The position numbers and the translations under genes were made by a program. 61,511 bases of DNA from Candidatus Saccharimonadota bacterium (lineage in GTDB: Bacteria; Patescibacteriota; Saccharimonadia; CAILAD01; GCA-016700035): NCBI GenBank assembly GCA_046350755.1, contig JAXLZV010000003.1:1-61511 (forward strand). Direction: 5' to 3'. The first letter of the stretch is position 1; each line of letters begins with the position of its first letter. The notes beneath the pieces were generated by a model. It had not been told where the DNA came from. It saw only the letters and a list, made by a program, of their open reading frames with translations, and did no database searches. Positions 35,187-47,086 of the stretch are shown one piece after another.

Positions 35187-37811
35187 ATGGCAAATCTTTT
35201 TCAGAAAATTTTTGGTGATCCCAATGAGCGCGAGGTAAAAAAAGCTCGCGTGCGGGTTGAGCGTATCAACGCTCTAGAAGCCGAGATCAAAGCACTATCT
35301 GATAAGGACCTCAAGGCTGAGACCGCAACACTCAAGGCCGAACTTTCAGCCGGTAAGAAGCTTGATGACGTACTTGAGCGCGCTTTTGCAGTTGTCCGCG
35401 AAACTAGTCGACGCGTCCTGAAAATGCGTCATTTTGACGTTCAGCTGATCGGTGGGATCGTGTTGCATGAAGGTAAGATCGCCGAAATGAAAACCGGTGA
35501 AGGTAAGACACTAGTTGCCACTGCCCCGGTTTACCTCAATGCCCTAACAGGCAATGGGGTGCACGTGATTAGTGTGAATGATTACCTAGTACGTCGTGAT
35601 GCCGGCTGGATGGCGCAAATATACCATTTTCTTGGCTTGACAACTGGTATTATTACTCATGAATCGGCGTTTATTTATGATCCTACGTATGTCAATGAGG
35701 AGCATACTGATGTCCGGCTGCGTCACCTGAAGCCAGTGACGCGTCGCGAGGCGTACCAAGCTGACATCACCTACGGGACAAATAATGAGTTTGGCTTTGA
35801 TTACCTGCGCGACAACATGGTGCAGGACATTGATCAAATGGTCCAACGCGAGTTATCGTTTGCGATAGTCGACGAAGTTGACTCAATTCTGATTGACGAA
35901 GCCCGTACGCCGCTGATTATTTCGCAGCCCCATGCTAAGTCGACCGACCGCTACTATACGTTTGCCAAGATTGCGAAGAGCCTGGTGCCGGGCGAGGATT
36001 ACGAGCTGGACGAGAAGCAAAAAGCCGTTAGTATCTCGGAAGACGGCATTACAAAGATTGAGAAAGCCCTCGGTGTAGATAACGTCTATGAAGCGGGTCG
36101 TATCGAGGATGTACATCATATTGAATCGGCTTTGAAGGCTGAGGCGGTTTTTCTCAAAGATCGTGATTATGTTGTGACGCCCGACGGCGAGATCGTTATT
36201 GTTGATGAGTTTACCGGTCGTCTCCTACCGGGTCGTCGCTATAGCGAGGGTTTGCACCAGGCAATTGAGGCAAAGGAAGGCGTACAAATTCAGCAAGAGA
36301 GTCAGACGCTGGCAACGATCTCGTTTCAAAATCTCTTCCGACTTTACACTAAGCTAGCCGGTATGACGGGTACCGCCGCCACTGAAGCTGAGGAATTTGG
36401 CAAAATTTATAAACTCGAAGTAACTACCATCCCGACTCATCAGCCGATGATTCGGCAGGATTTGCCAGATCGCGTGTATAAGACACTGAAAGGTAAGTTT
36501 ACGGCCGTGGTGGAAGATGTGCGCGAGCGCCATGAGAAGGGCCAGCCAGTGCTGTTGGGAACCGTTTCAATCGAGAAAAATGAGTTGCTCTCTCGTATGC
36601 TTACCCAAGCCGGAGTCAAACACACCGTCTTAAATGCCAAGAATAATGAAGCTGAGGCCGACATTGTTGCGGCGGCGGGTCAAAAAGGTGCCGTCACCTT
36701 AGCGACTAACATCGCCGGTCGTGGTACGGACATTGTGCTGGGTGAAGGTGTGACCGAAGTTGGTGGCCTGCATGTGATTGGTACAGAACGTCATGAGAGC
36801 CGTCGAATCGACAATCAGCTGCGAGGTCGGGCAGGACGACAGGGCGATCCAGGATCGAGCCAATTCTACGTATCGATGGAAGACGATCTGATGCGTATCT
36901 TTGGGAGTGAGCGGTTGAGCTCGATGATGGACAGCTTAGGTTTGCCGGAAGACACGCCGATTGAGAATAGTATGGTGAGTCGGTCGCTCGAATCAGCTCA
37001 GAAGAAGGTCGAAGGGCACAACTTCGATACCCGTAAACACTTGGTCGATTATGACGACGTCATGAACCAGCACCGCGAGATTATTTACGCCCGTCGTCGA
37101 GCGATTCTCAAACAAGATTCGTTGAAGGATGATCTTATGCCACTGTTTGAGGCCGAATTCCGGGGTGCTATCACCGCTGCCACCGACGTCCAGACCGAAC
37201 ACTTAGATCTGGATAAACTGGCAGATCAGATTCGAACCGTCATCCCGCTCGATAGAGATTGGGTGAAGCAGCAAGACCGACGCGATGCTGATCATCTGGT
37301 GGATAGGTTTATGAAGCAGGCTGAGGAGATGTACCGCCAGCGCACGATGGAGTTTGGCGATGATGGCATGATGGTGATCGAGCGCCTGGTGAGCCTCAAG
37401 ACGATTGATTCGGCTTGGCTCGAGCACCTTGAGGCGATGGATCACCTCCGTGACGGCATTGGTCTGCGGGGCTATGGTCAGCGTGATCCATTGGTTGAAT
37501 ATAAGCAGGAAGCATTCCGAATGTTTGGTATGCTTCAGGCACGGATTGATAGTGAAATCGTTCATACTCTCTTTAAGGTGAAACTCGAGCTGAATGCTCC
37601 GAGTGAAGCGCCGATTGAGACCGAAATAACGCGCGGTGCTGATCGAGCGATTGCCTCCGGACCGAGTGAGTCAGGGGCAATTGAGACTGAGAAAGCGGTT
37701 GCTAAGGCTAAGCGTCAAGCCGAACGTTCTGGCCATGAGGCGGGTCCGATTCATCGGGTTGGTAGTCAGTCGGTCAAGAAAAAGATGAAGAAAAAGAAAA
37801 AGCGCCGCTAA
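35187..37811 (+). CDS. secA: Preprotein translocase ATPase SecA
   Basis: [49 protein letters not shown]. Confidence 0.98.
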
Positions 37812-37859: not shown

Positions 37860-37884
37860 TGTGCTATCTGGTATCATAAGGGGA

Positions 37885-40683
37885 ATGAATAGTGAAGCAC
37901 CACGCATTGATCAGGATTTTCCACCAGCCGCCGGCGAGGCCGCTCGACAACTCAGAAAAACATTAGCCGAGATTGCACTGGTCAAGATGCAGCTTGAGTC
38001 TGCCCTTAAGAAAGAACGCAATCCGGCTCGACGCGAGCAAGTGGCGGCCAGTACCGAAGCCAAGCTGACCGAGCTGAACCAGGCGAGACAAGACGCTTTG
38101 GTAGCCATGCGTGAAGGGCTGGAGGAAGTACCCGAGCATGCGTCCCCAGAAGTGCCTCGTGATCAGGTGGGCATAGAGCTCCCCGCGACTGAGGATCCCT
38201 ACAGGCTGGCTGGTCAGCCGCTACCGCGCATCGTGCAGACTCTCCAAGCGACGAAGGGTTGGGCGGGAGTTGAAAATCGCATTAATCGTCACTATGGCTC
38301 GTCCGGCACCGGTATAACCGCTGAGGATTACGTTCAAGAGCTGGCTCGCCAGATACAATCGGGTATGCGGCCGCTCGATGGCCAGATATGGCAAGATGTA
38401 TACGATCGATATGATAGCCAGGGGCAGGTAATTGCAGAGCCACAGCCGGACTTGCCGTCAGTAAGCGTAAGCGGTTATGATAAGCACGATACACAACCTA
38501 GGAGTGACGGAATGCCCAACCCAGAACACAACCCATCAGAGCCGCCGGCTCAAAATCATCAGGAGGCGGTGGCTGATGATCTTGAGGAAATCTTAGCTCA
38601 GCAGGGTGGCTACCAGCCGCGGTATGAGGCTCATGTGCCGCGCAGTCCACTCGAGCAAGCCCATCAGCCGGAAGCTTCGGCTAGTCAATCACGTGGTTAT
38701 AACGCACGAGCTACGGAATTTGCTCGTCAACGACCCGAATCGCAACAAGCTGTGCCCCGAGCTACGGCAGAGCCAGAAGCTCAACCTGCCGCTGAGCGCG
38801 TCACGGCGGCTGAAACTGAGGCTTTCGAGCGTTCGAGTACAGCCGAGTTTGGCGGTCAGTCGTTTGAACGGGGTGATCGGATAGTTTATGAATCTGATTC
38901 AGGGCGGATAGCCGAGTACTATGTCTTATGTAACTCGTTTGGTGATCCTCCGGGCCTCGTTGTTCAATCGACCACTAATGAGTCGATGGTGTTTGCTATC
39001 GGTGGTGATACTGAAGCCGGACGGGTCCGTCGAGTCCTCGGTGCCCCTGGCGAAGACGAGCCAGGTCCACCGAGTGGCGGTGGTGCTGGTCCGGGTGAAG
39101 GTGAACCAGGCGAAGGCCCCGGTGAACGTCGACGGCCGGGTGGAGAGCAATTTGTCCCAGAAAATCTACTCGAGAGAATTCCGCGCATACCAAATCGCGA
39201 GGAGATGCTCGCCGCGGGTGATGTGATGCGCGGGATGCTGGACCAACGGATTCAGGACGTTGCCCAGGCCAAAGAGCAGCGCGAGAAGTTATTTGGTAAG
39301 TTTGGCGATAAGGCGGCCTTGGCTGAAGCGGCCGAGGATTTAGGCGCAGCTTATAATCAATATCTTGAGAATTGGGCGTCACAACTAGCAACCTATCGCA
39401 ATATCGGCAATGAAATTTCGACGACGAAATCAGGTTTTCAAAACGAGCTTCAGTCGCGGCGCGAATCTCTCGAACGCCTTCAGGCCGATCAAGATCTCGA
39501 TCCCGCAATCAAGGAAGATCGTATTCGCGTTAAGCAAGCTGCGATTCGCGATACGGAAGCTGCTATCGACGAGTGTGACACTCGTCTAGCTCAGTTTGAG
39601 GAGTCGAAGGAGCTGATTGAGCGGGTCACGCGTGAAGTTGAGATTCAGATCACCCTCGAACTCGCTCAAGCCCGTACGAAGATAGAAACTGCCCAGGCCG
39701 AGCTCAAGGAAGGCAATAAGGTTCAGCGTGCGATCAAATGGGCGAAGGACGCTTGGCGTAAACATCCAAAGACTCGTCTAGCAATAACCGTAGGTCTTGG
39801 TGTCGCGTCGTTAGCTACTGGTTTCGCTGGTTTCGCCGTGGCGGCGGCTGGGATGCGCGCGGTTGGCGCTGGAGTTGGTACCGAGCTAGGTGTGAATACT
39901 CGAAGGCAGTGGTGGGCCAATCGCAGTGAGTCCAAGGGTGCCGAAAAAGCTTGGGGCCAGACTGATGAAGCTACTCGCACGGAAGCGGAAGCGGTTGGTG
40001 GCTGGGTCGGTGAAACTACCCCTGATCTGAGTCAGCAGGCCAAAACTGACCTTGAACTTTTCCAGCAGCGCCATGGTCGCGAAATCTACAGCGAAGATAT
40101 GATTTTGAAGGTCTTGCGGGGCGACCCAGACGCCTCGGCTGAGGTTGCAACGATGTTGGTGAGTGATCAGATCGGTGAAAAGGGGCGTGTCCAGAAGGAT
40201 GCCTCATCAAATCGACGGGCCAAAGTCGCGGCGGTAGCCGCCGCGACAACCGTTGGGCTGTTTGGGCTCTATCGCTCAGTAGGTTCGTCGGGACGCGCTA
40301 CGGACAGCATGGAGAGTAATGTTCGGCCCAAACCACCAACGGCTGATTATGATCCGAATGCCGACCGCTGGTATGGAATGGCCAAAGTGAATCCAAATAC
40401 GATGAACGCTGACTGGGAGGCTATGCACGCGGGAGCCACTCCGGCAGCTGAAGCCGCCGCCCACGTCGGTGAAGGCGCTCTCGACACCGCCTACAATTCG
40501 GCTTCGGAAGGCATGAATCTTGCCCAATTACGTCAACTCAATCAGATCATTGGTACTGGAGCGCGAACTATTGGCAATGATCGCGTGGCCGAGCTGATGC
40601 CAGGAATCGCCCGCCAGGTCGTCAACGGACGCTCAACGGATCAGATCTTAAGTCTATATGGCATACCGCCAACGGCAGCCTAA
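37885..40683 (+). CDS. Large orphan protein (about 930 aa) with coiled coils and Gly/Ala-rich hydrophobic segments
   Basis: Long uninterrupted ORF; TATCAT 7 nt before ATG 37885; heptad-rich region then LAITVGLGVASLATGFAGFAVAAAG. Confidence 0.85.
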   Translation: MNSEAPRIDQDFPPAAGEAARQLRKTLAEIALVKMQLESALKKERNPARREQVAASTEAKLTELNQARQDALVAMREGLEEVPEHASPEVPRDQVGIELPATEDPYRLAGQPLPRIVQTLQATKGWAGVENRINRHYGSSGTGITAEDYVQELARQIQSGMRPLDGQIWQDVYDRYDSQGQVIAEPQPDLPSVSVSGYDKHDTQPRSDGMPNPEHNPSEPPAQNHQEAVADDLEEILAQQGGYQPRYEAHVPRSPLEQAHQPEASASQSRGYNARATEFARQRPESQQAVPRATAEPEAQPAAERVTAAETEAFERSSTAEFGGQSFERGDRIVYESDSGRIAEYYVLCNSFGDPPGLVVQSTTNESMVFAIGGDTEAGRVRRVLGAPGEDEPGPPSGGGAGPGEGEPGEGPGERRRPGGEQFVPENLLERIPRIPNREEMLAAGDVMRGMLDQRIQDVAQAKEQREKLFGKFGDKAALAEAAEDLGAAYNQYLENWASQLATYRNIGNEISTTKSGFQNELQSRRESLERLQADQDLDPAIKEDRIRVKQAAIRDTEAAIDECDTRLAQFEESKELIERVTREVEIQITLELAQARTKIETAQAELKEGNKVQRAIKWAKDAWRKHPKTRLAITVGLGVASLATGFAGFAVAAAGMRAVGAGVGTELGVNTRRQWWANRSESKGAEKAWGQTDEATRTEAEAVGGWVGETTPDLSQQAKTDLELFQQRHGREIYSEDMILKVLRGDPDASAEVATMLVSDQIGEKGRVQKDASSNRRAKVAAVAAATTVGLFGLYRSVGSSGRATDSMESNVRPKPPTADYDPNADRWYGMAKVNPNTMNADWEAMHAGATPAAEAAAHVGEGALDTAYNSASEGMNLAQLRQLNQIIGTGARTIGNDRVAELMPGIARQVVNGRSTDQILSLYGIPPTAA

Positions 40684-40698
40684 TAATAAGGAGTAATT

Positions 40699-41040
40699 AT
40701 GGATACCACTCAACCTCAAACCCAAGCTGATATTTTCACACGTCTAGGCATGGCTTCGGCCAGCGATGAACAGAAGCAAAAGCTGGCTGAACAACTCGCC
40801 GAGCTCACGATGGTGCGCGTTATGGAGAAAGTCTCGAGTACCATCCCCGAAGAGACGATGGACGAAATTGAGGCCCTGATTGATAAGGGAGCCGATGATC
40901 AGGTAGAGGATCGACTGCGTCAGGCGATTCCTGGCTATGATGAACTAGTCCAAACGACCGCCAGTGAAGTGGCCGATCAGATCGTAGCTGACCAGCAAGC
41001 GGTGCTGGCTAAAGTGCGCTCTCAGACGACCTCGGCCTAG
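40699..41040 (+). CDS. Small acidic helical protein, DUF5663-like
   Basis: DIFTRLGMAS.SDEQKQKLAEQL...RVMEKVS...IPGYDELV pattern recalled from CPR DUF5663 proteins; AAGGAG SD. Confidence 0.7.
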   Translation: MDTTQPQTQADIFTRLGMASASDEQKQKLAEQLAELTMVRVMEKVSSTIPEETMDEIEALIDKGADDQVEDRLRQAIPGYDELVQTTASEVADQIVADQQAVLAKVRSQTTSA

Positions 41041-41130
41041 TCAGTAACCAGTAAGTTAGATTGACTTTACCCTGAAAAAATGGTAAAGTTTTTCTGTTTT
41101 TCCTGCACCTTCCAACCTTAGGAGGCCCAT

Positions 41131-42324
41131 ATGGGCAGTACTCATTCAGCCAAGAAAGGCATCACTGATCCCGCCGATCTCACAGCCGCGCTGGCGGCCG
41201 CGCAGGTGAGCAGCAATGGCGCCAGCCCACCGGTCACCGCCAACCAGACTGCCTCAAGCTTGTCTGGAGGAGACGAGCCGGCCGTCATGGCTACCGAAGC
41301 AGTCGCTCCCCGGAAGCGGGTTGGCGATGTCATTGATGCCTTGCATGTTGCCGGCATTCTGCCGCCGGATGATGACGGCATTGGTTTTATCCAGTCGATC
41401 TACCGCACGTTGAATCTGATCAAGTTGGACCAACCACTGCCCAAGATCAACCGCGGTACCTTGGTTCGGCCAGCCATCATCACTCACGTCGATCTGCTAC
41501 TGGCACAGGGCCACGCTTCGGCCACAACGCCAGTCGCGACGGCTGCATCTTCAGCTCAGACTCCGCGGATCAAGCAGCACGCTCAGTTTGCGGAGTTGAC
41601 ACCAGAGCTGCAGCAGCTGGTGCTGCTGGCTGATGAGGCGCGTGGCCGCCATCAGATGGTGGTCGCCCTGCAAGGTAAGCCTGGAGATGACAATGATGAG
41701 CTCTATCATCAGGAGTCTGCCGACGCGTTTCAGGCGGTTTCTGATCAGATGCGAGCAATTGCGAGCATGATCCCCGGTATCACGCCGCGCTACTTGGCTA
41801 GCTGGTTGCGACGAGTCGGTGTGTATTTCGAAGCAGTTATCAAGTCTGACGAGGACTTGGTGACAGCCGTGAGCACGCTGCGCTGGCCGAAGGCACGACC
41901 TGAAGCAACAGCGGTACCGGTATCGACGCCCCCATCTGCGTCAGCTCCGGCTGAGGTGGAACCTGCAGTTGCTGAACCAAGCGACCGAGCCTTCGTGGTG
42001 ACGTCGACTGGTGGGGTCACCGAGCCTGCGCGTCATCGAGTGACGAGCGGGGCGAGGCGAGTAGCAGCCAGTCAGCCGACAGTCGAGACGCAAGCGGTGA
42101 GCCAGGAATCAGCTGATTCCGAGCAAGAGTTGGTTGAGCCGACTGCCAGTGAATTCACCGACCAGCAGCTCATTGAGCTGGTGGGCGGCGATGAGGTCGA
42201 TCAACTCTTCGACGCGATCTACCAACGCTATGGCTGGGACTCTCCTGACATGGACGCAGTTGAGGCCGAAGTACGGTCTCTGTTGATTGCTCGAGCCCGC
42301 GAACTGAGTGTGTCGCCGGCGTAA
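41131..42324 (+). CDS. Orphan hypothetical protein with low-complexity linkers
   Basis: 397-aa ORF; TTGACT-N17-TAAAGT promoter, AGGAGG SD, downstream hairpin. Confidence 0.8.
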   Translation: MGSTHSAKKGITDPADLTAALAAAQVSSNGASPPVTANQTASSLSGGDEPAVMATEAVAPRKRVGDVIDALHVAGILPPDDDGIGFIQSIYRTLNLIKLDQPLPKINRGTLVRPAIITHVDLLLAQGHASATTPVATAASSAQTPRIKQHAQFAELTPELQQLVLLADEARGRHQMVVALQGKPGDDNDELYHQESADAFQAVSDQMRAIASMIPGITPRYLASWLRRVGVYFEAVIKSDEDLVTAVSTLRWPKARPEATAVPVSTPPSASAPAEVEPAVAEPSDRAFVVTSTGGVTEPARHRVTSGARRVAASQPTVETQAVSQESADSEQELVEPTASEFTDQQLIELVGGDEVDQLFDAIYQRYGWDSPDMDAVEAEVRSLLIARARELSVSPA

Positions 42325-42330
42325 ACGATC

Positions 42331-42363
42331 GGGGTGGTTTGGATCTATTTCCAAGCCACCCTT
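42331..42363 (+). terminator. Hairpin after the 41131 orphan
   Basis: GGGGTGGTTTGGA-TCTATT-TCCAAGCCACCCT. Confidence 0.6.
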
Positions 42364-42483
42364 ATTCATTGGTGCGCATGTATGGCATAAGTTTATTGAC
42401 AAGCTATAAAAGTATTGCAAAATATACATTTTTATGCTATAGTGCGCGCAGTACCTTCATTCCTCAACAGAAAGGGGATCGGC

Positions 42484-43209
42484 ATGGCCGACCTCACGCA
42501 ACGCAACAACGCCGCTCGCCACCGTGAGCACGATCGCAAGCATCGGCTGCTCAACGAGCAGTACGAGCTGGTCACTGGTCAGGTCACCGACCTCCAGGGA
42601 CGGATCACACGGCTCGAGCAGGCTGGCGCCTCCGATGAGACGCTGGCCGGCATGCGTCAGGAGCTCGAGCGCTTGCTCGGGATCCAGACCAGCTTCGGCA
42701 ATCAGCTGACCGAGTTCTCGACCCAGTTGGCTTCGGTCGACGGTCGCGTCTCGTCACTCGAGCGCTGGAAGCCGCATGTCAACGAGCGGCTCGAAGCCGT
42801 CGAGGTGAGCAGCAATGCCCACGCCACGGCGATCGCTCGGCTGAGTGACGCCAATGGCTGGGTGCCCATCGCTGCCGCCGCGGTGGCTGGTCTCATCACC
42901 TACGTGGTGATCGAGGTCTTCCACGACACCGCCACCCACATCCAGTGGGCTTGGGTGTTGGTCTTGGCCGCGGTGGCTGGCATCGTTGCCAGCTTCTTGG
43001 CCGGTTCGGCGACCAGCCGGGCCTCGGCCTCCAGCCAGGCTTCGGCCACCGTCGGCACTGCGCCGGCTCCGGCCGACCAGGCTCCGGCTGAGCCGCCCAC
43101 GGCGACCGTTCCGGTTGCCGATGCTCAGCCGCCTGCGCCACCCATGCCGGCACCAGTTCCTTCTCGCAGGAACGTCAGTGCCAGTGCGGCCGCTCAGGTC
43201 AACGGCTGA
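42484..43209 (+). CDS. Orphan coiled-coil + 2-TM membrane protein, GC-rich
   Basis: TTGCAA-N17-TATAGT promoter, AAAGGGG SD, ATG 42484; heptads, two TMs, Pro/Ala tail. Confidence 0.8.
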   Translation: MADLTQRNNAARHREHDRKHRLLNEQYELVTGQVTDLQGRITRLEQAGASDETLAGMRQELERLLGIQTSFGNQLTEFSTQLASVDGRVSSLERWKPHVNERLEAVEVSSNAHATAIARLSDANGWVPIAAAAVAGLITYVVIEVFHDTATHIQWAWVLVLAAVAGIVASFLAGSATSRASASSQASATVGTAPAPADQAPAEPPTATVPVADAQPPAPPMPAPVPSRRNVSASAAAQVNG

Positions 43210-43218
43210 TCATCCCTC

Positions 43219-43248
43219 GTGTTTGGGGGTCTTCGGACCCCCAAACAC
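43219..43248 (+). terminator. Perfect 13-bp hairpin with C(UUCG)G loop and no U-tail
   Basis: GTGTTTGGGGGTC-TTCG-GACCCCCAAACAC. Confidence 0.7.
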
Positions 43249-43303
43249 ATCATTCTAGCTTTTGGTATTATTCTGATGACGATTCTTCGCCGTCAGAACC
43301 CGT

Positions 43304-44497
43304 ACCTGAACACCGCCGCAATCCCGCGGCCCGTCCATGAAAGGGGGCCGCCATGCGCGCGCCCAACTCTCCGCAGCAGAAGTTCTTCTTCTCGCTGCTC
43401 GGGGCGGCAGCTCTGCTGCTGATCACCCCAACCCTCTACCATCGTCTGGTGGATGACGACCCGGCTTCGGCCAGTCCCACCACCACGACGACTGCCGCCC
43501 CGGCTCCGGCCGGAACCTGCGGCAGCTCTCCCTGGTTCTACGCCCGGGACACGGAAGGTAACCAGTTCGGTCCCGCCGCTCCGGAAGAGGTGAATGCCGC
43601 CCAGGCGGAGTTCACCAAGCGCCGTTGCGTCGATCCGGCCCTGCTGGTCGCCGACTCGGAGTATCTCTTCAACGAGTTCTCCGATCCGACTGCCCGCGTC
43701 GCCAAGACGCAGGACTTCATCGCCAATCCCGACCACTGGGCCCTCAGTGAGCTGCGCTTCCAGCAGAAGCTCGGGACGGCCACGAAGGTCGAGGTGGCGA
43801 CGATGTCTGGCGGGTACCAGACCATGGACATGGTGGATCGGGATCGTTCGATCCCGGAGATCTACCAGATCCCGGTCGAAGCCGCACCCTTCCGGGTGCT
43901 GCGGTACACCTTCCCCGATGGATCGGTGAAGAACTTCAAGCTCAATTGTGGCTTCCAGCCCGTTGAGCAGTCCTTCCCGCCCAGCGTGCCCGGCAAGGGA
44001 GCTCCTCCGGCGCCCAACCAGCCGGCTGGACCGGTCACACCGTCCCGGCCCGGTGGCCACAGGCCGCCGACGCCGCCGGTGGGACCCACGGTTCCGCCCA
44101 CTCCTGGCAAGTGCGCCAATCAGCAGGGTCAGTACTGTGGTACTCCCGACTCCGGACCGGAATTCGATCCGGTTCAGTCGAACCCGCAGTCGCCCACGCC
44201 GGGCTATGTCCCGGGGAATGCCGAGACGGTGATCAATCAGCAGCAGAACGATGCTGCGATCACTGCTGGAGGTGGCGATCCCTATCGCCCAACCCAGTAC
44301 GGCACCCCCGGTACCGGCACTGGCTCCGGAGTGACGACCCCCTCGGGTCAGACCTCCGGTCCGACCGGCAACACCACTGGTGGGACGGTCGGGGCTTCCA
44401 ACCCCGACAACAACACCAATACGGCTGGCCAGACCAGCTCGGGTACGGTGGCACCGCCTCCGTAACCCATGCCTGATCGCTCTCGCGGTGTTCAGGT
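43304..44497. repeat. 13-bp perfect inverted repeat bracketing the 43353-44465 gene
   Basis: ACCTGAACACCGC (43304-43316) and GCGGTGTTCAGGT (44485-44497). Confidence 0.85.
43353..44465 (+). CDS. Orphan secreted/anchored protein with Cys-containing domain and Pro/Gly/Thr-rich tail, GC-rich
   Basis: N-terminal hydrophobic segment, PTTTTT linker, five Cys, AAAGGGGG SD. Confidence 0.82.
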   Translation: MRAPNSPQQKFFFSLLGAAALLLITPTLYHRLVDDDPASASPTTTTTAAPAPAGTCGSSPWFYARDTEGNQFGPAAPEEVNAAQAEFTKRRCVDPALLVADSEYLFNEFSDPTARVAKTQDFIANPDHWALSELRFQQKLGTATKVEVATMSGGYQTMDMVDRDRSIPEIYQIPVEAAPFRVLRYTFPDGSVKNFKLNCGFQPVEQSFPPSVPGKGAPPAPNQPAGPVTPSRPGGHRPPTPPVGPTVPPTPGKCANQQGQYCGTPDSGPEFDPVQSNPQSPTPGYVPGNAETVINQQQNDAAITAGGGDPYRPTQYGTPGTGTGSGVTTPSGQTSGPTGNTTGGTVGASNPDNNTNTAGQTSSGTVAPPP

Positions 44498-44502
44498 CAA
44501 CA

Positions 44503-44532
44503 GCCCTCGGGGCGCTTCGGCGCTCCGAGGGC
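44503..44532 (+). terminator. 13-bp hairpin with C(UUCG)G loop
   Basis: GCCCTCGGGGCGC-TTCG-GCGCTCCGAGGGC. Confidence 0.7.
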
Positions 44533-44748
44533 AACCTCATTTACTGACCAAAATAAAACCATAAGCAATACCATTGACAAACCACAACAAATCTGATACA
44601 ATACAGCAGTCATTCACACCAGGTGTGGAGTCGCTACTTAACAGCTCAAATAGTCTTCCCAACAGAAGCAAGCAATTCTTGACGAAAGCTTAAAACTATC
44701 CAATAACCATAAGTATTATTCCTCACCAAGTGAGAGAAGGAGCAAGCT

Positions 44749-45912
44749 ATGAAGTTTGTCGCCAAACTCCGCACACTTGCCGCTGCTGCAGCCCTGGTAC
44801 TCGTACCAGCCGCCGCCGCCGCTACTGGCCAAGTTGCGATCGAAGCCCGCACCGCAGTTGCTAACCAAACTGCCGGCGATACGGTCTATCAAAAAGCCGT
44901 AAATGCCAAAACCGACGAAGTCGTAAAAGTCCAAGTCTGGTATCACAACAAAGAAGAGGCTAACTCGAATAAAGTAGCCAATAACCTCAAAGTCAAAATT
45001 GACCTGCCAACTACTACTGGCAAAAGCCAGGTAGTGAAGGGTACGGTCAGCGCCGATAACAGTAATACTGTTGTCGACACCGCTAACGTCAACCTTGCCC
45101 TCGACCAGAGCCGACTCGAGTATATCCCAGGCTCAGCTCAGTGGCGCCACAACACTGGTACCAATGAAGCTCCAAACTGGGTAACCGAGAAGATCAGCGA
45201 CCAAGTCGTTGGTACGGGTATTACTCTTGGTAACGAGAAGCCTTGCTTTAACTTTGAAGCTAACGTAACCGTTCTAGCCCGTGTCAAAACTCCTGCAGTT
45301 TCGATCACGAAGCAGGTTCGGGTGCTTGGCGAAAAAGATTGGAAGACTGAAAACACCGCCAAAGCCGGTGACACGCTCGAGTACTTGATCTCGTTCAAAA
45401 ACGAAGGTAACACTACGCTGAACAACGTTATCATTGCTGATAACATGCCAGCTAACGTCACCTACGTACCAGGTACTACCATGATAAAAAATGGTGCGAA
45501 CCCAAATGGTACTAAGATTAACTCGGACAATATCACCAAAGGTGGCGTGAATGTAGGTAACTACACACCAGGTGCCAACGGTTACGTATGGTTCCAGGCT
45601 AAGATTGACTCAAATCTCAAGCCAGGTAACTACACTTTCAAAAACGTTGGTATCGTGAAGCCTGAAGGTATGGGCGAGTACTTTAACGCCGCTCAGACTA
45701 AGGTTAGCGTGGCCGGTCCTACAACCGTCCCACCAACCACTCCTGTGACTCCAACTACCCCAACCACTCCAACTACCCCTGCCCTTCCGCAGACTGGTGT
45801 TGAAGCTGGTGCAGCTGGCCTCATGGGTACAGGTGCCCTGACCTACGCTGGTTACTTCTACCGGAAGAGCCGCAAGGGTCTGACCGAAGCTCTCAAAAAC
45901 GTTGTTAAGTAA
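44749..45912 (+). CDS. Cell-surface protein with Ig-like DUF11-type domains and LPXTG-like sorting signal
   Basis: Signal peptide; SITKQV...AKAGDTLEYLISFKNEG...IIADNMPANVTYVPGT; LPQTG + hydrophobic stretch + RKSRK; AGAAGGAG SD. Confidence 0.88.
   Translation: MKFVAKLRTLAAAAALVLVPAAAAATGQVAIEARTAVANQTAGDTVYQKAVNAKTDEVVKVQVWYHNKEEANSNKVANNLKVKIDLPTTTGKSQVVKGTVSADNSNTVVDTANVNLALDQSRLEYIPGSAQWRHNTGTNEAPNWVTEKISDQVVGTGITLGNEKPCFNFEANVTVLARVKTPAVSITKQVRVLGEKDWKTENTAKAGDTLEYLISFKNEGNTTLNNVIIADNMPANVTYVPGTTMIKNGANPNGTKINSDNITKGGVNVGNYTPGANGYVWFQAKIDSNLKPGNYTFKNVGIVKPEGMGEYFNAAQTKVSVAGPTTVPPTTPVTPTTPTTPTTPALPQTGVEAGAAGLMGTGALTYAGYFYRKSRKGLTEALKNVVK
45730..45780 (+). repeat. Degenerate 9-bp tandem repeat encoding Pro-Thr-Thr stalk
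   Basis: CCAACCACT/CCAACTACC units giving PPTTPVTPTTPTTPTTP. Confidence 0.8.
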
Positions 45913-45930: not shown

Positions 45931-45964
45931 AAACTCCCCAAGGGATTTCCCGAGGGGAGTTTTG
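45931..45964 (+). terminator. Intrinsic terminator of the surface-protein gene
   Basis: AAACTCCCC...GGGGAGTTTTT. Confidence 0.75.
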
Positions 45965-46003
45965 GTATCTGGAAAGAGATCTTGCAGGTATAATGAGAAA
46001 CGT

Positions 46004-47086
46004 ATGAAGCCGACGATTGATACATTATCGCGTTTACTCGCCGAAGTCCGCGAGGCCAAAGCCCAGCTCCAGCTCGATGACGAGCGGGGGCGGCTTCAAG
46101 TGCTCGAAGACCAGATTGCCGCTCCAGATTTCTGGAATGATGCGGAAACCGCGCAGAAAATCAGCCAGGACGCCGCTCAGCTCCGGAATTATCTAGCTGA
46201 TTGGGATAAGCTTGAGGACGAGCTGACAACAAATCTAGAGCTAGCGGAGATGTCAGACGAGTCGCAGGCTGATGAATTTACTGAACTCACGACCGATCTG
46301 GAGTCCCGAGTGGCCGCCGCTATGATCACCGTGAAGCTCTCGGGAGCGCATGATAAGCTGCCGGCGATTATGCAGCTGTCAGCGGGAGTTGGCGGTACGG
46401 ATGCCCAGGATTGGGCCGAGATGCTGCTGGCGATGTACACTCGGGCGGCCGAGAAGCTTAGCCTCAAAGCCGAACTCGTTGATATCTCGCGCGGTGAAGA
46501 AGCCGGTATAAAGTCGGCCACCCTTGAGTTCACTGGGCCTTTTGCTTTTGGCAAGCTCAAGAGTGAAAAGGGTGTGCATCGGTTAGTCCGACTGTCGCCA
46601 TTTAATAGCGATAATCTCCGTCAAACCAGTTTTGCCCTGGTGGATGTAGTGCCAGAGATCCCAATGGAAGAAATTGAGCTGGACGAAAAAGACTTGCGGG
46701 TTGATGTCTATCGCTCCGGCGGGCACGGGGGACAGAGCGTCAATACCACTGATTCGGCGGTGCGGATTACGCATCTTCCGACCGGCACCGTTGTAGCGAT
46801 TCAGAATGAACGCTCGCAGTTGAAGAATAAGCAAAAAGCCATGAGTATTTTGGCGGCTCGCTTGGCCGAATTGGCGCGTGAACAGCATCTGGAGTCGGTT
46901 GCGGAATTACGTGGCCAGGTAAAGTCTGCCGATTGGGGTGCCCAAATTCGCTCTTATGTCTTGCACCCCTACCAGAAAGTGAAGGATCACCGCACGGACT
47001 ACGAAACCAGCGATACCGATGGTGTCCTGGCTGGCGAGATCGAACCGTTTATCGAAGCATATCTTACCAAAAATCTGAGTCAATAA
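46004..47086 (+). CDS. prfB: Peptide chain release factor 2 (no programmed frameshift)
   Basis: GVGGTDAQDWAEML, GVHRLVRLSPF (SPF), [27 protein letters not shown]. Confidence 0.97.
   Translation: MKPTIDTLSRLLAEVREAKAQLQLDDERGRLQVLEDQIAAPDFWNDAETAQKISQDAAQLRNYLADWDKLEDELTTNLELAEMSDESQADEFTELTTDLESRVAAAMITVKLSGAHDKLPAIMQLSAGVGGTDAQDWAEMLLAMYTRAAEKLSLKAELVDISRGEEAGIKSATLEFTGPFAFGKLKSEKGVHRLVRLSPFNSDNLRQTSFALVDVVPEIPMEEIELDEKDLRVDVYRSGGHGGQSVNTTDSAVRITHLPTGTVVAIQNERSQLKNKQKAMSILAARLAELAREQHLESVAELRGQVKSADWGAQIRSYVLHPYQKVKDHRTDYETSDTDGVLAGEIEPFIEAYLTKNLSQ

Follow-up and report, generated by a model that had tools for sequence, protein, structure and literature searches.

Locus and inverted repeat

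We analyzed a stretch of 61,511 nucleotides (nt) from an uncultured Candidatus Saccharibacteria genome (contig JAXLZV010000003.1; hereafter called the window), with a focus on one gene of 370 codons, referred to here as the target gene, and on two short complementary segments (arms) that flank it. The window is an ordinary chromosomal stretch, and the target open reading frame (ORF) occupies positions 43353-44465 on the plus strand. The arms, ACCTGAACACCGC at 43304-43316 and GCGGTGTTCAGGT at 44485-44497, are perfect 13-nt reverse complements of each other and lie 1168 nt apart. They enclose a Shine-Dalgarno sequence, AAAGGGGG (43340-43347), together with the ORF. The 3' arm starts 19 nt past the TAA stop (44463-44465), and 5 nt after its end follows a 13-bp GC-rich hairpin (44503-44532). 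A GTACCT motif (43302-43307) overlaps the 5' arm. A first-pass annotation of the sequence had described this repeat, and we found its coordinates and complementarity to be exact; the 19-nt gap between stop and 3' arm, the enclosure of Shine-Dalgarno sequence and ORF, and the overlap with GTACCT are likewise as it stated. It had also placed the repeat inside a promoter and a final hairpin; the hairpin is present, but the interval from the upstream gene to the 5' arm has no detectable sigma-70-like promoter.

To place the repeat among the other genes of the window, 120 nt upstream were compared with 80 nt downstream of crudely called ORFs. The longest perfect upstream/downstream complement was 13 nt at the target versus 5 to 9 nt at the other 55 ORFs; the ORF caller chose an antisense ORF at the target locus, so that the target stands outside the 55 ORFs compared. 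Two other perfect 13-nt inverted pairs with a spacing of 50 to 2000 nt occur in the window (40599-40611/40923-40935 and 31833-31845/33632-33644), both within coding regions. A direct repeat, TCAGGTCAAC, which occurs both where the upstream gene ends (43195) and in the 3' arm (44491), is attributed to chance because the orthologues do not keep it.

The target protein is predicted to have an N-terminal membrane helix, a folded domain, and disordered regions. In the AlphaFold2 model, the predicted local distance difference test score exceeds 90 at approximately residues 60 to 210, representing a domain of ~150 aa, with a helix at residues 7 to 33 and with Pro/Thr/Gly-rich disordered regions. The Pfam scan assigned no family to the protein, and the ~150-aa domain had no significant fold match in the PDB (best E value, 0.1). 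The model is read here as that of a predicted membrane-anchored, Saccharibacteria-specific envelope or secreted protein. The gene had at first been taken for an orphan, which it is not, as it has 25 homologues, all of them metagenomic or from metagenome-assembled genomes. In two of these, L027 (P0014) and P0019, unrelated sequence replaces the N-terminal globular domain and the C-terminal part is kept. The leader and arms of L027 are retained as well, as is its gene order, a pattern that suggests domain replacement within a fixed mRNA scaffold.

Conservation and covariation of the arms

The orthologue set comprised 14 distinct loci, namely, the window and 13 recovered loci with 42 to 71% protein identity, plus contigs of the window's own species. 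Complementarity between leader and tail is present in one register in all 14 distinct loci, and 12 of them have 10 to 15 contiguous pairs (G:U counted), with the weaker helices in L016 and L025. The core common to the loci is CCUGAAC/GUUCAGG. Around it, the two arms have changed together. A T:A-to-C:G double change in L009 and L027 gives ACCCGAACA/UGUUCGGGU (ACCUG/CAGGU to ACCCG/CGGGU). A single helix position shows U:A, U:G, C:G, and A:U across loci, with U:A passing to C:G via U:G, and at a second position A:U is swapped to U:A. The direction in which the helix is extended also differs among lineages, being on the 3' side in the window (ACACCGC/GCGGUGU) and on the 5' side in L010 and L021. 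The first-pass annotation had proposed to look for compensatory changes in homologous loci and had named a gene kept without its complementarity as the contrary outcome. Complementarity is retained through paired changes, and because the homologous loci retain it in this way, no such locus occurs among the 14.

These changes were quantified in an alignment (A3) anchored solely on a four-base core, with 16 pairs scored. Of the cells in this alignment, 82% are paired, versus 24 to 43% when the partner columns are slid. Changes on both sides occur at 9 of the 16 pairs versus 3.9 ± 1.2 in column shuffles, and none of 500 such shuffles, which preserve the conservation of each arm, attained any of the five measures used. 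RNAalifold independently yielded a matching consensus helix, in which compensatory changes occur at 6 of the 11 pairs.

Predicted RNA layout and folding

Single-sequence minimum-free-energy folds, in which each leader was folded alone, gave a layout common to the orthologues: a U-rich box, a CUG...CAG hairpin, an A/C-rich single strand, a small hairpin, and the start codon. All of the elements described below are on the plus strand. In the window, the U-rich box TTTTGGTATTATT (43260-43272) is directly 5' of leader hairpin 1, a 5'-proximal stem-loop (CUGAUGACG...CGCCGUCAG, 43273-43296). A hairpin of 24 to 52 nt closed by CUG...CAG or an equivalent is present at the hairpin-1 site in 14 of 14 orthologues. 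The 5' arm (43304-43316; ACCUGAACACCGC), which lies within the A/C-rich stretch, is predicted to be single stranded between hairpins 1 and 2 and stays unpaired in the leader-only folds; it ends 36 nt before the AUG in the window and 24 to 46 nt before it across orthologues. Leader hairpin 2 (GCGGCCC...GGGCCGC, 43326-43351) overlaps the Shine-Dalgarno sequence; in most orthologues, a small hairpin whose sequence varies among loci follows the 5' arm and precedes the Shine-Dalgarno sequence. At the other end of the gene, the 3' arm (44485-44497; GCGGUGUUCAGGU) begins 0 to 37 nt past the stop in orthologues and is always just before the terminator hairpin. In the window this hairpin (GCCCUCGGGGCGC/GCGCUCCGAGGGC, 44503-44532) has a 13-bp stem and a UUCG loop, with a weak, displaced U-tract beyond it; the orthologous hairpins in L010 and L016 were called intrinsic terminators.

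When leader and 3' untranslated region (UTR) were folded together, the arm helix formed in all 14 orthologues with an energy gain of -10 to -20 kcal/mol. The duplex energy of the arms is approximately -24 kcal/mol in the window, and the best local leader/tail duplexes across orthologues range from -18.5 to -26.3 kcal/mol. In folds of the full-length RNA (~1.25 kb), the helix is part of the minimum-free-energy structure, with a probability of 0.75 to 1.0, in 13 of 14 orthologues.

The U-rich box, with the consensus TTTTGGT(A/T)TTATT(C), is kept in 12 of 14 orthologues, and its sole other match in the window has two mismatches, is on the minus strand, and is at chance level. The box may represent a -10-like element, the displaced U-tract of a terminator, or a site of processing. 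Hairpins at gene ends in this region (43219-43272, 44503-44546, and the orthologous sites) share a spacer of ~6 to 15 nt and then a U-rich tract, for example, hairpin, TCATCC, TTTTATT. They are unlike canonical intrinsic terminators in this respect, and a simple scan misses several of them.

No part of the window matched an Rfam family at gathering score, and the best subthreshold matches in 43150-44750 were noise. A hammerhead ribozyme was considered for CUGAUGA at 43273 and rejected, given the lack of a GAAA core, the absence of the motif from L010-type leaders, and the lack of an Rfam match. Pairing of the 5'-arm ACCU with the Shine-Dalgarno AGGU was also rejected, as it amounts to 4 bp only and is not conserved.

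A candidate long-range helix between leader and tail

Our preferred explanation, which we consider fairly probable, is that the arms are the two halves of a long-range RNA helix between the 5' UTR and the 3' UTR of one mRNA, formed in cis and likely stabilizing that mRNA. The helix is assigned to the sense mRNA because the arms lie just outside the ORF and between hairpins of the mRNA. Both arms would be carried on one transcript and would pair in the cell, with the 5' arm, single stranded between hairpins 1 and 2, joining a segment in the 3' UTR that ends shortly before the terminator hairpin, and the resulting 13-bp helix would loop the whole cistron closed. The arms are outside the ORF and, in most orthologues, beyond the footprints of initiating and terminating ribosomes; therefore, such a helix could persist during translation. 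It may shield the A/C-rich segment that is exposed in the leader and anchor the 3' end, limiting the entry of ribonucleases, and by analogy with the hbs mRNA of Bacillus subtilis the envelope-protein mRNA might thereby be long-lived. The strong Shine-Dalgarno sequence, the 5' hairpin, and the GC-rich ORF, all conserved across orthologues, are consistent with stabilization, without being proof of it. Pairing of the 5' UTR and the 3' UTR that closes the mRNA for stability or processing was one of two options raised in the first-pass annotation; the pairing has gained support from complementarity kept by compensatory changes, and an effect on stability as opposed to processing is still inferential.

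Several observations weigh against this explanation. As to the repeat itself, three perfect 13-mer inverted pairs with a spacing of 50 to 2000 nt are present in the window, compared with 2.1 ± 1.9 expected from block-wise dinucleotide shuffles, and at least three arise in 32% of the shuffles, which puts the bare repeat at chance level; the feature therefore rests on its placement and on the comparative data. Among the comparative data, L025 has two internal mismatches, and the helix of L016 is weak, bulged, and shifted to the 5' side, with P = 0.01 in the full-length fold. Because the 14 sequences are kin, common descent and not independent change accounts for part of the covariation. Over the 16 scored positions, G:U cells are no more frequent than A:C cells (11 versus 11), and it is only for mismatches inside the helix that G:U outnumbers A:C by ~4-5 to 1. 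Duplex energies are also alike on the sense and antisense strands (p = 0.10), and neither of these comparisons favors one strand. Among the folding controls, one control gene equaled the energy gain of co-folding, and 4 of 12 control genes also reached at least 7 expected inter-UTR pairs in full-length folds; because these 4 genes are also predicted to pair end to end, we gave full-length folding little weight. No sigma-70-like promoter was found directly 5' of the target in the window (43210-43352), in L010 (2833-3000), or in L016 (2796-3000). Finally, the direction of the effect (stabilizing or repressing) and the ribonuclease involved are pure inference.

A bolder extension of the proposed helix, to which we assign only a small chance, is that it forms part of a conserved package for an unusually nuclease-proof, closed-loop mRNA in these bacteria with reduced genomes and that the loop might return terminating ribosomes to the start site. 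The members of such a package may be the helix, the 5' hairpin, the U-rich box, the coding sequence, strongly enriched in GC at third codon positions like the neighboring upstream gene, and the terminator hairpin. If true, the return of ribosomes would correspond, in bacteria and through RNA alone, to the closed loop of eukaryotes, and the helix would be the first bacterial interaction of a 5' UTR with a 3' UTR under selection throughout a lineage and not in a single species.

Transcription unit and gene neighborhood

Tandem sigma-70-like promoters (TTGACA-16-CAAAAT and TTGCAA-17-TATAGT; 42396-42443, plus strand) are located upstream of the gene that precedes the target, and equivalent tandem promoters precede the orthologous neighbor in L010 and L016. 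Strong conserved promoters also precede the gene downstream of the target, those of the genes on either side of the target being near consensus, and none is predicted between the two arms. Because no sigma-70-like promoter is detectable directly upstream of the target, the target is probably transcribed by read-through from 42396-42443, the sole recognizable promoter site able to drive it, across an intergenic hairpin and is probably cotranscribed with its upstream neighbor; the read-through transcript is possibly processed at the U-rich box. The intergenic hairpin in question (43219-43248, plus strand) is GC rich, with a 13-bp stem and a 4-nt loop; it is situated past the upstream gene and has equivalents in the orthologues. 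It is predicted to be a terminator or a stabilizer without an adjoining U-tract. A CGTACC(T) motif occurs ~8 to 15 nt past the -10 box of the neighbor in most orthologues (42448-42455 in the window). A further copy, at the 5' border of the 5' arm (43301-43307), is found in approximately half of them and is the GTACCT motif mentioned above.

The upstream neighbor (42484-43209, plus strand) encodes a hypothetical protein of 241 aa, adjoins the target in every locus, and, like the target, has a high GC content at third codon positions (GC3). GC3 is 0.78 in the target and 0.80 in the neighbor versus ~0.53 in the genome. In all nine orthologous loci checked, GC3 is 0.70 to 0.87 in the target and its neighbor (0.75 to 0.87 for orthologues of the neighbor) versus 0.37 to 0.57 in the CLIPPER gene and prfB. 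The absence of drift to the genome average at protein identities down to ~42% suggests that this GC3 island is actively maintained. An antisense ORF of 415 codons (43293-44540, minus strand) runs nearly exactly from arm to arm. Stop-free antisense runs in the orthologues vary from 188 to 398 codons, which makes this ORF doubtful as a gene and probably a side effect of the high GC3.

The genes of the window include ftsZ, ileS, ftsW, parAB, prfA, rpsB-tsf-frr, mreBC, a penicillin-binding protein gene, and greA, as well as lysS, serS, secA, prfB, aroA, ftsEX, and pyrG. The target sits in a lineage-specific block flanked by secA (35187-37811) and prfB (45962-47086), two genes that are adjacent in some other bacteria, such as B. 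subtilis. The block (37861-45912) holds five or six lineage-specific genes, encoding a 940-aa protein, a DUF5663 protein, a 397-aa protein, the 241-aa protein, the target, and a CLIPPER/DUF11 surface protein with LPQTG. The order DUF5663, hypothetical, hypothetical, target, CLIPPER/DUF11, prfB, aroA, in one orientation, is found in 14 of 14 distinct orthologous loci and is held on the contig of the most distant homologue (P0023) as well; within the window's own species, the target has an identical position and orientation on all 23 contigs.

Alternative explanations

Covariation suits pairing in trans as well as pairing in cis, and a small RNA originating in the 3' UTR could pair with the leader of its own mRNA and exert negative or positive feedback. 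The position of the 3' arm directly before a strong terminator hairpin is a typical place for the seed of such RNAs, and autoregulation by small RNAs from 3' UTRs has a precedent in OppZ and CarZ of Vibrio cholerae (PMC7398697). However, the site that would be targeted is 24 to 46 nt before the AUG and leaves the ribosome-binding site uncovered, and cis pairing would be kinetically favored if both arms were on one molecule. OppZ and CarZ are Hfq dependent; we know of no processing site or chaperone in this lineage, which also counts against action in trans. We therefore regard this explanation as unlikely.

The helix could instead be destructive or serve in processing, either as an RNase III-type site or as a block to translation, with the outcome that the gene is down-regulated or that its cistron is cut from a longer transcript. 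The icaR mRNA of Staphylococcus aureus provides a precedent (PMC3868564), and a processing role is conceivable for a gene with no recognizable promoter of its own that may be part of a two-gene transcript. Against it, the 5' arm does not contain the Shine-Dalgarno sequence, no C-rich anti-Shine-Dalgarno motif is present in the 3' arm, and the helix measures only 10 to 15 bp in orthologues, short of the approximately two helical turns that RNase III usually needs. Since the Shine-Dalgarno sequence lies outside the helix and the helix is short, a duplex of the icaR kind is disfavored, and we judge this explanation to be rather improbable.

It is quite improbable that the arms are two oppositely oriented sites for one DNA- or RNA-binding protein or a chance match on independently conserved flanks. 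The chance level of the 13-mer pair by itself and the good conservation of the 5' arm region as primary sequence would fit such a view, but none of the 500 shuffles that kept the conservation of the columns reached the observed pairing. Coordinated double changes and lineage-specific directions of extension are expected for base pairing and not for a protein site, and it is because the double changes are coordinated that a pair of protein sites is disfavored.

Least probable of all, and very improbable in our view, is an element acting at the DNA level, in which the arms would serve either as the recombination sites that let a segment invert (as for a phase-variable surface protein) or as terminal repeats of a mobile cassette: inverted repeats do bracket an envelope-protein gene, and recombination could hold the arms matched, but position and orientation are constant in the 14 loci and the 23 contigs of the same species, and the arms shrink to 10 to 11 bp with G:U-type mismatches and the bulge of L016, which RNA tolerates and the core sites of a recombinase are not expected to. 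A nonautonomous mobile cassette with terminal inverted repeats, the other option of the first-pass annotation, is rejected, and there is no sign of inversion, because gene order and orientation are constant in every locus. No assembled locus, whether on the 23 same-species contigs or from the 13 other lineages, showed an inverted orientation, and the bases outside the arms, CCCGT and CAACA, form no direct repeat and thus no target-site duplication. The search for further copies that had been proposed along with the cassette turned up neither the arm nor the leader motif a second time in the 61.5-kb window, and the 14 orthologous loci carry the gene and its arms at a constant position in the gene order. 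No transposase or recombinase family was found among the 52 ORFs of the window scanned against Pfam, a few short ORFs being outside the scan; those scanned are housekeeping and envelope genes only, plus some without a match.

Comparison with known systems

Only three bacterial mRNAs with an interaction between their own 5' and 3' UTRs, hld/RNAIII, icaR, and hbs, were listed in a 2021 review, which asked whether the mechanism is general (PMC7821165). The closest parallel to the candidate helix is hbs of B. subtilis, in which a 14-nt segment located just past a leader hairpin pairs with a fully complementary one that shortly precedes the terminator, with an energy of -19 kcal/mol (PMC5737220). 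Compensatory mutagenesis established that pairing, which limits cleavage of the leader by RNase Y (Braun, Durand, and Condon 2017, PMC5737220). The geometry predicted for the target is essentially identical to that of hbs. Both have full complementarity over 13 to 14 nt (13 of 13 nt between the upstream and downstream flanks of the target), a 5' arm after a leader hairpin, and a 3' arm just before an intrinsic terminator, and in both a strong Shine-Dalgarno sequence is outside the two arms; the energies are -24 kcal/mol here and -19 kcal/mol in hbs. In contrast, the gene, protein, and phylum are unrelated, and the hbs pairing is experimentally proven, whereas the one described here is read from sequence, with natural compensatory changes as evidence of pairing. 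The 3' UTR of hbs is not conserved in close relatives (PMC7821165), whereas the Saccharibacteria helix covaries across 14 species-level lineages.

Other systems share fewer features with the target. In icaR, as proposed for the target, the 3' UTR of the mRNA pairs with its 5' UTR (Ruiz de los Mozos et al. 2013, PMC3868564). There, the Shine-Dalgarno region is paired to a UCCCCUG motif of the 3' UTR, an interaction that prevents initiation and makes a substrate for RNase III (PMC3868564). In the target, the Shine-Dalgarno sequence (43340-43347) is outside the helix, 24 nt past the 5' arm, with no anti-Shine-Dalgarno run, and the 3' UTR is ~70 nt long compared with >100 nt in icaR. The likeness to OppZ and CarZ is that a segment just before the terminator complements an upstream untranslated part of the transcription unit; these RNAs reportedly act in trans after RNase E cleavage and target the ribosome-binding region (PMC7398697). 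The likeness to more distant cases is in topology alone. In the processing stems of 16S and 23S rRNA and in the cyclization sequences of flaviviruses, short complements more than 1 kb apart join the ends of an RNA, and these serve rRNA maturation or genome replication.

The host of the candidate helix belongs to the uncultured Saccharibacteria of the candidate phyla radiation, and our literature search returned nothing on posttranscriptional control in Saccharibacteria, nor on this feature there. The helix flanks the gene of a lineage-specific envelope protein that may matter for episymbiont life on other bacteria. Our results suggest that comparing gene flanks across metagenome-assembled genomes can reveal such interactions without transcriptomics. 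Next to hld/RNAIII, icaR, and hbs, the leader-tail helix of the target gene is thus a candidate fourth case, backed by natural compensatory evolution in 14 lineages.

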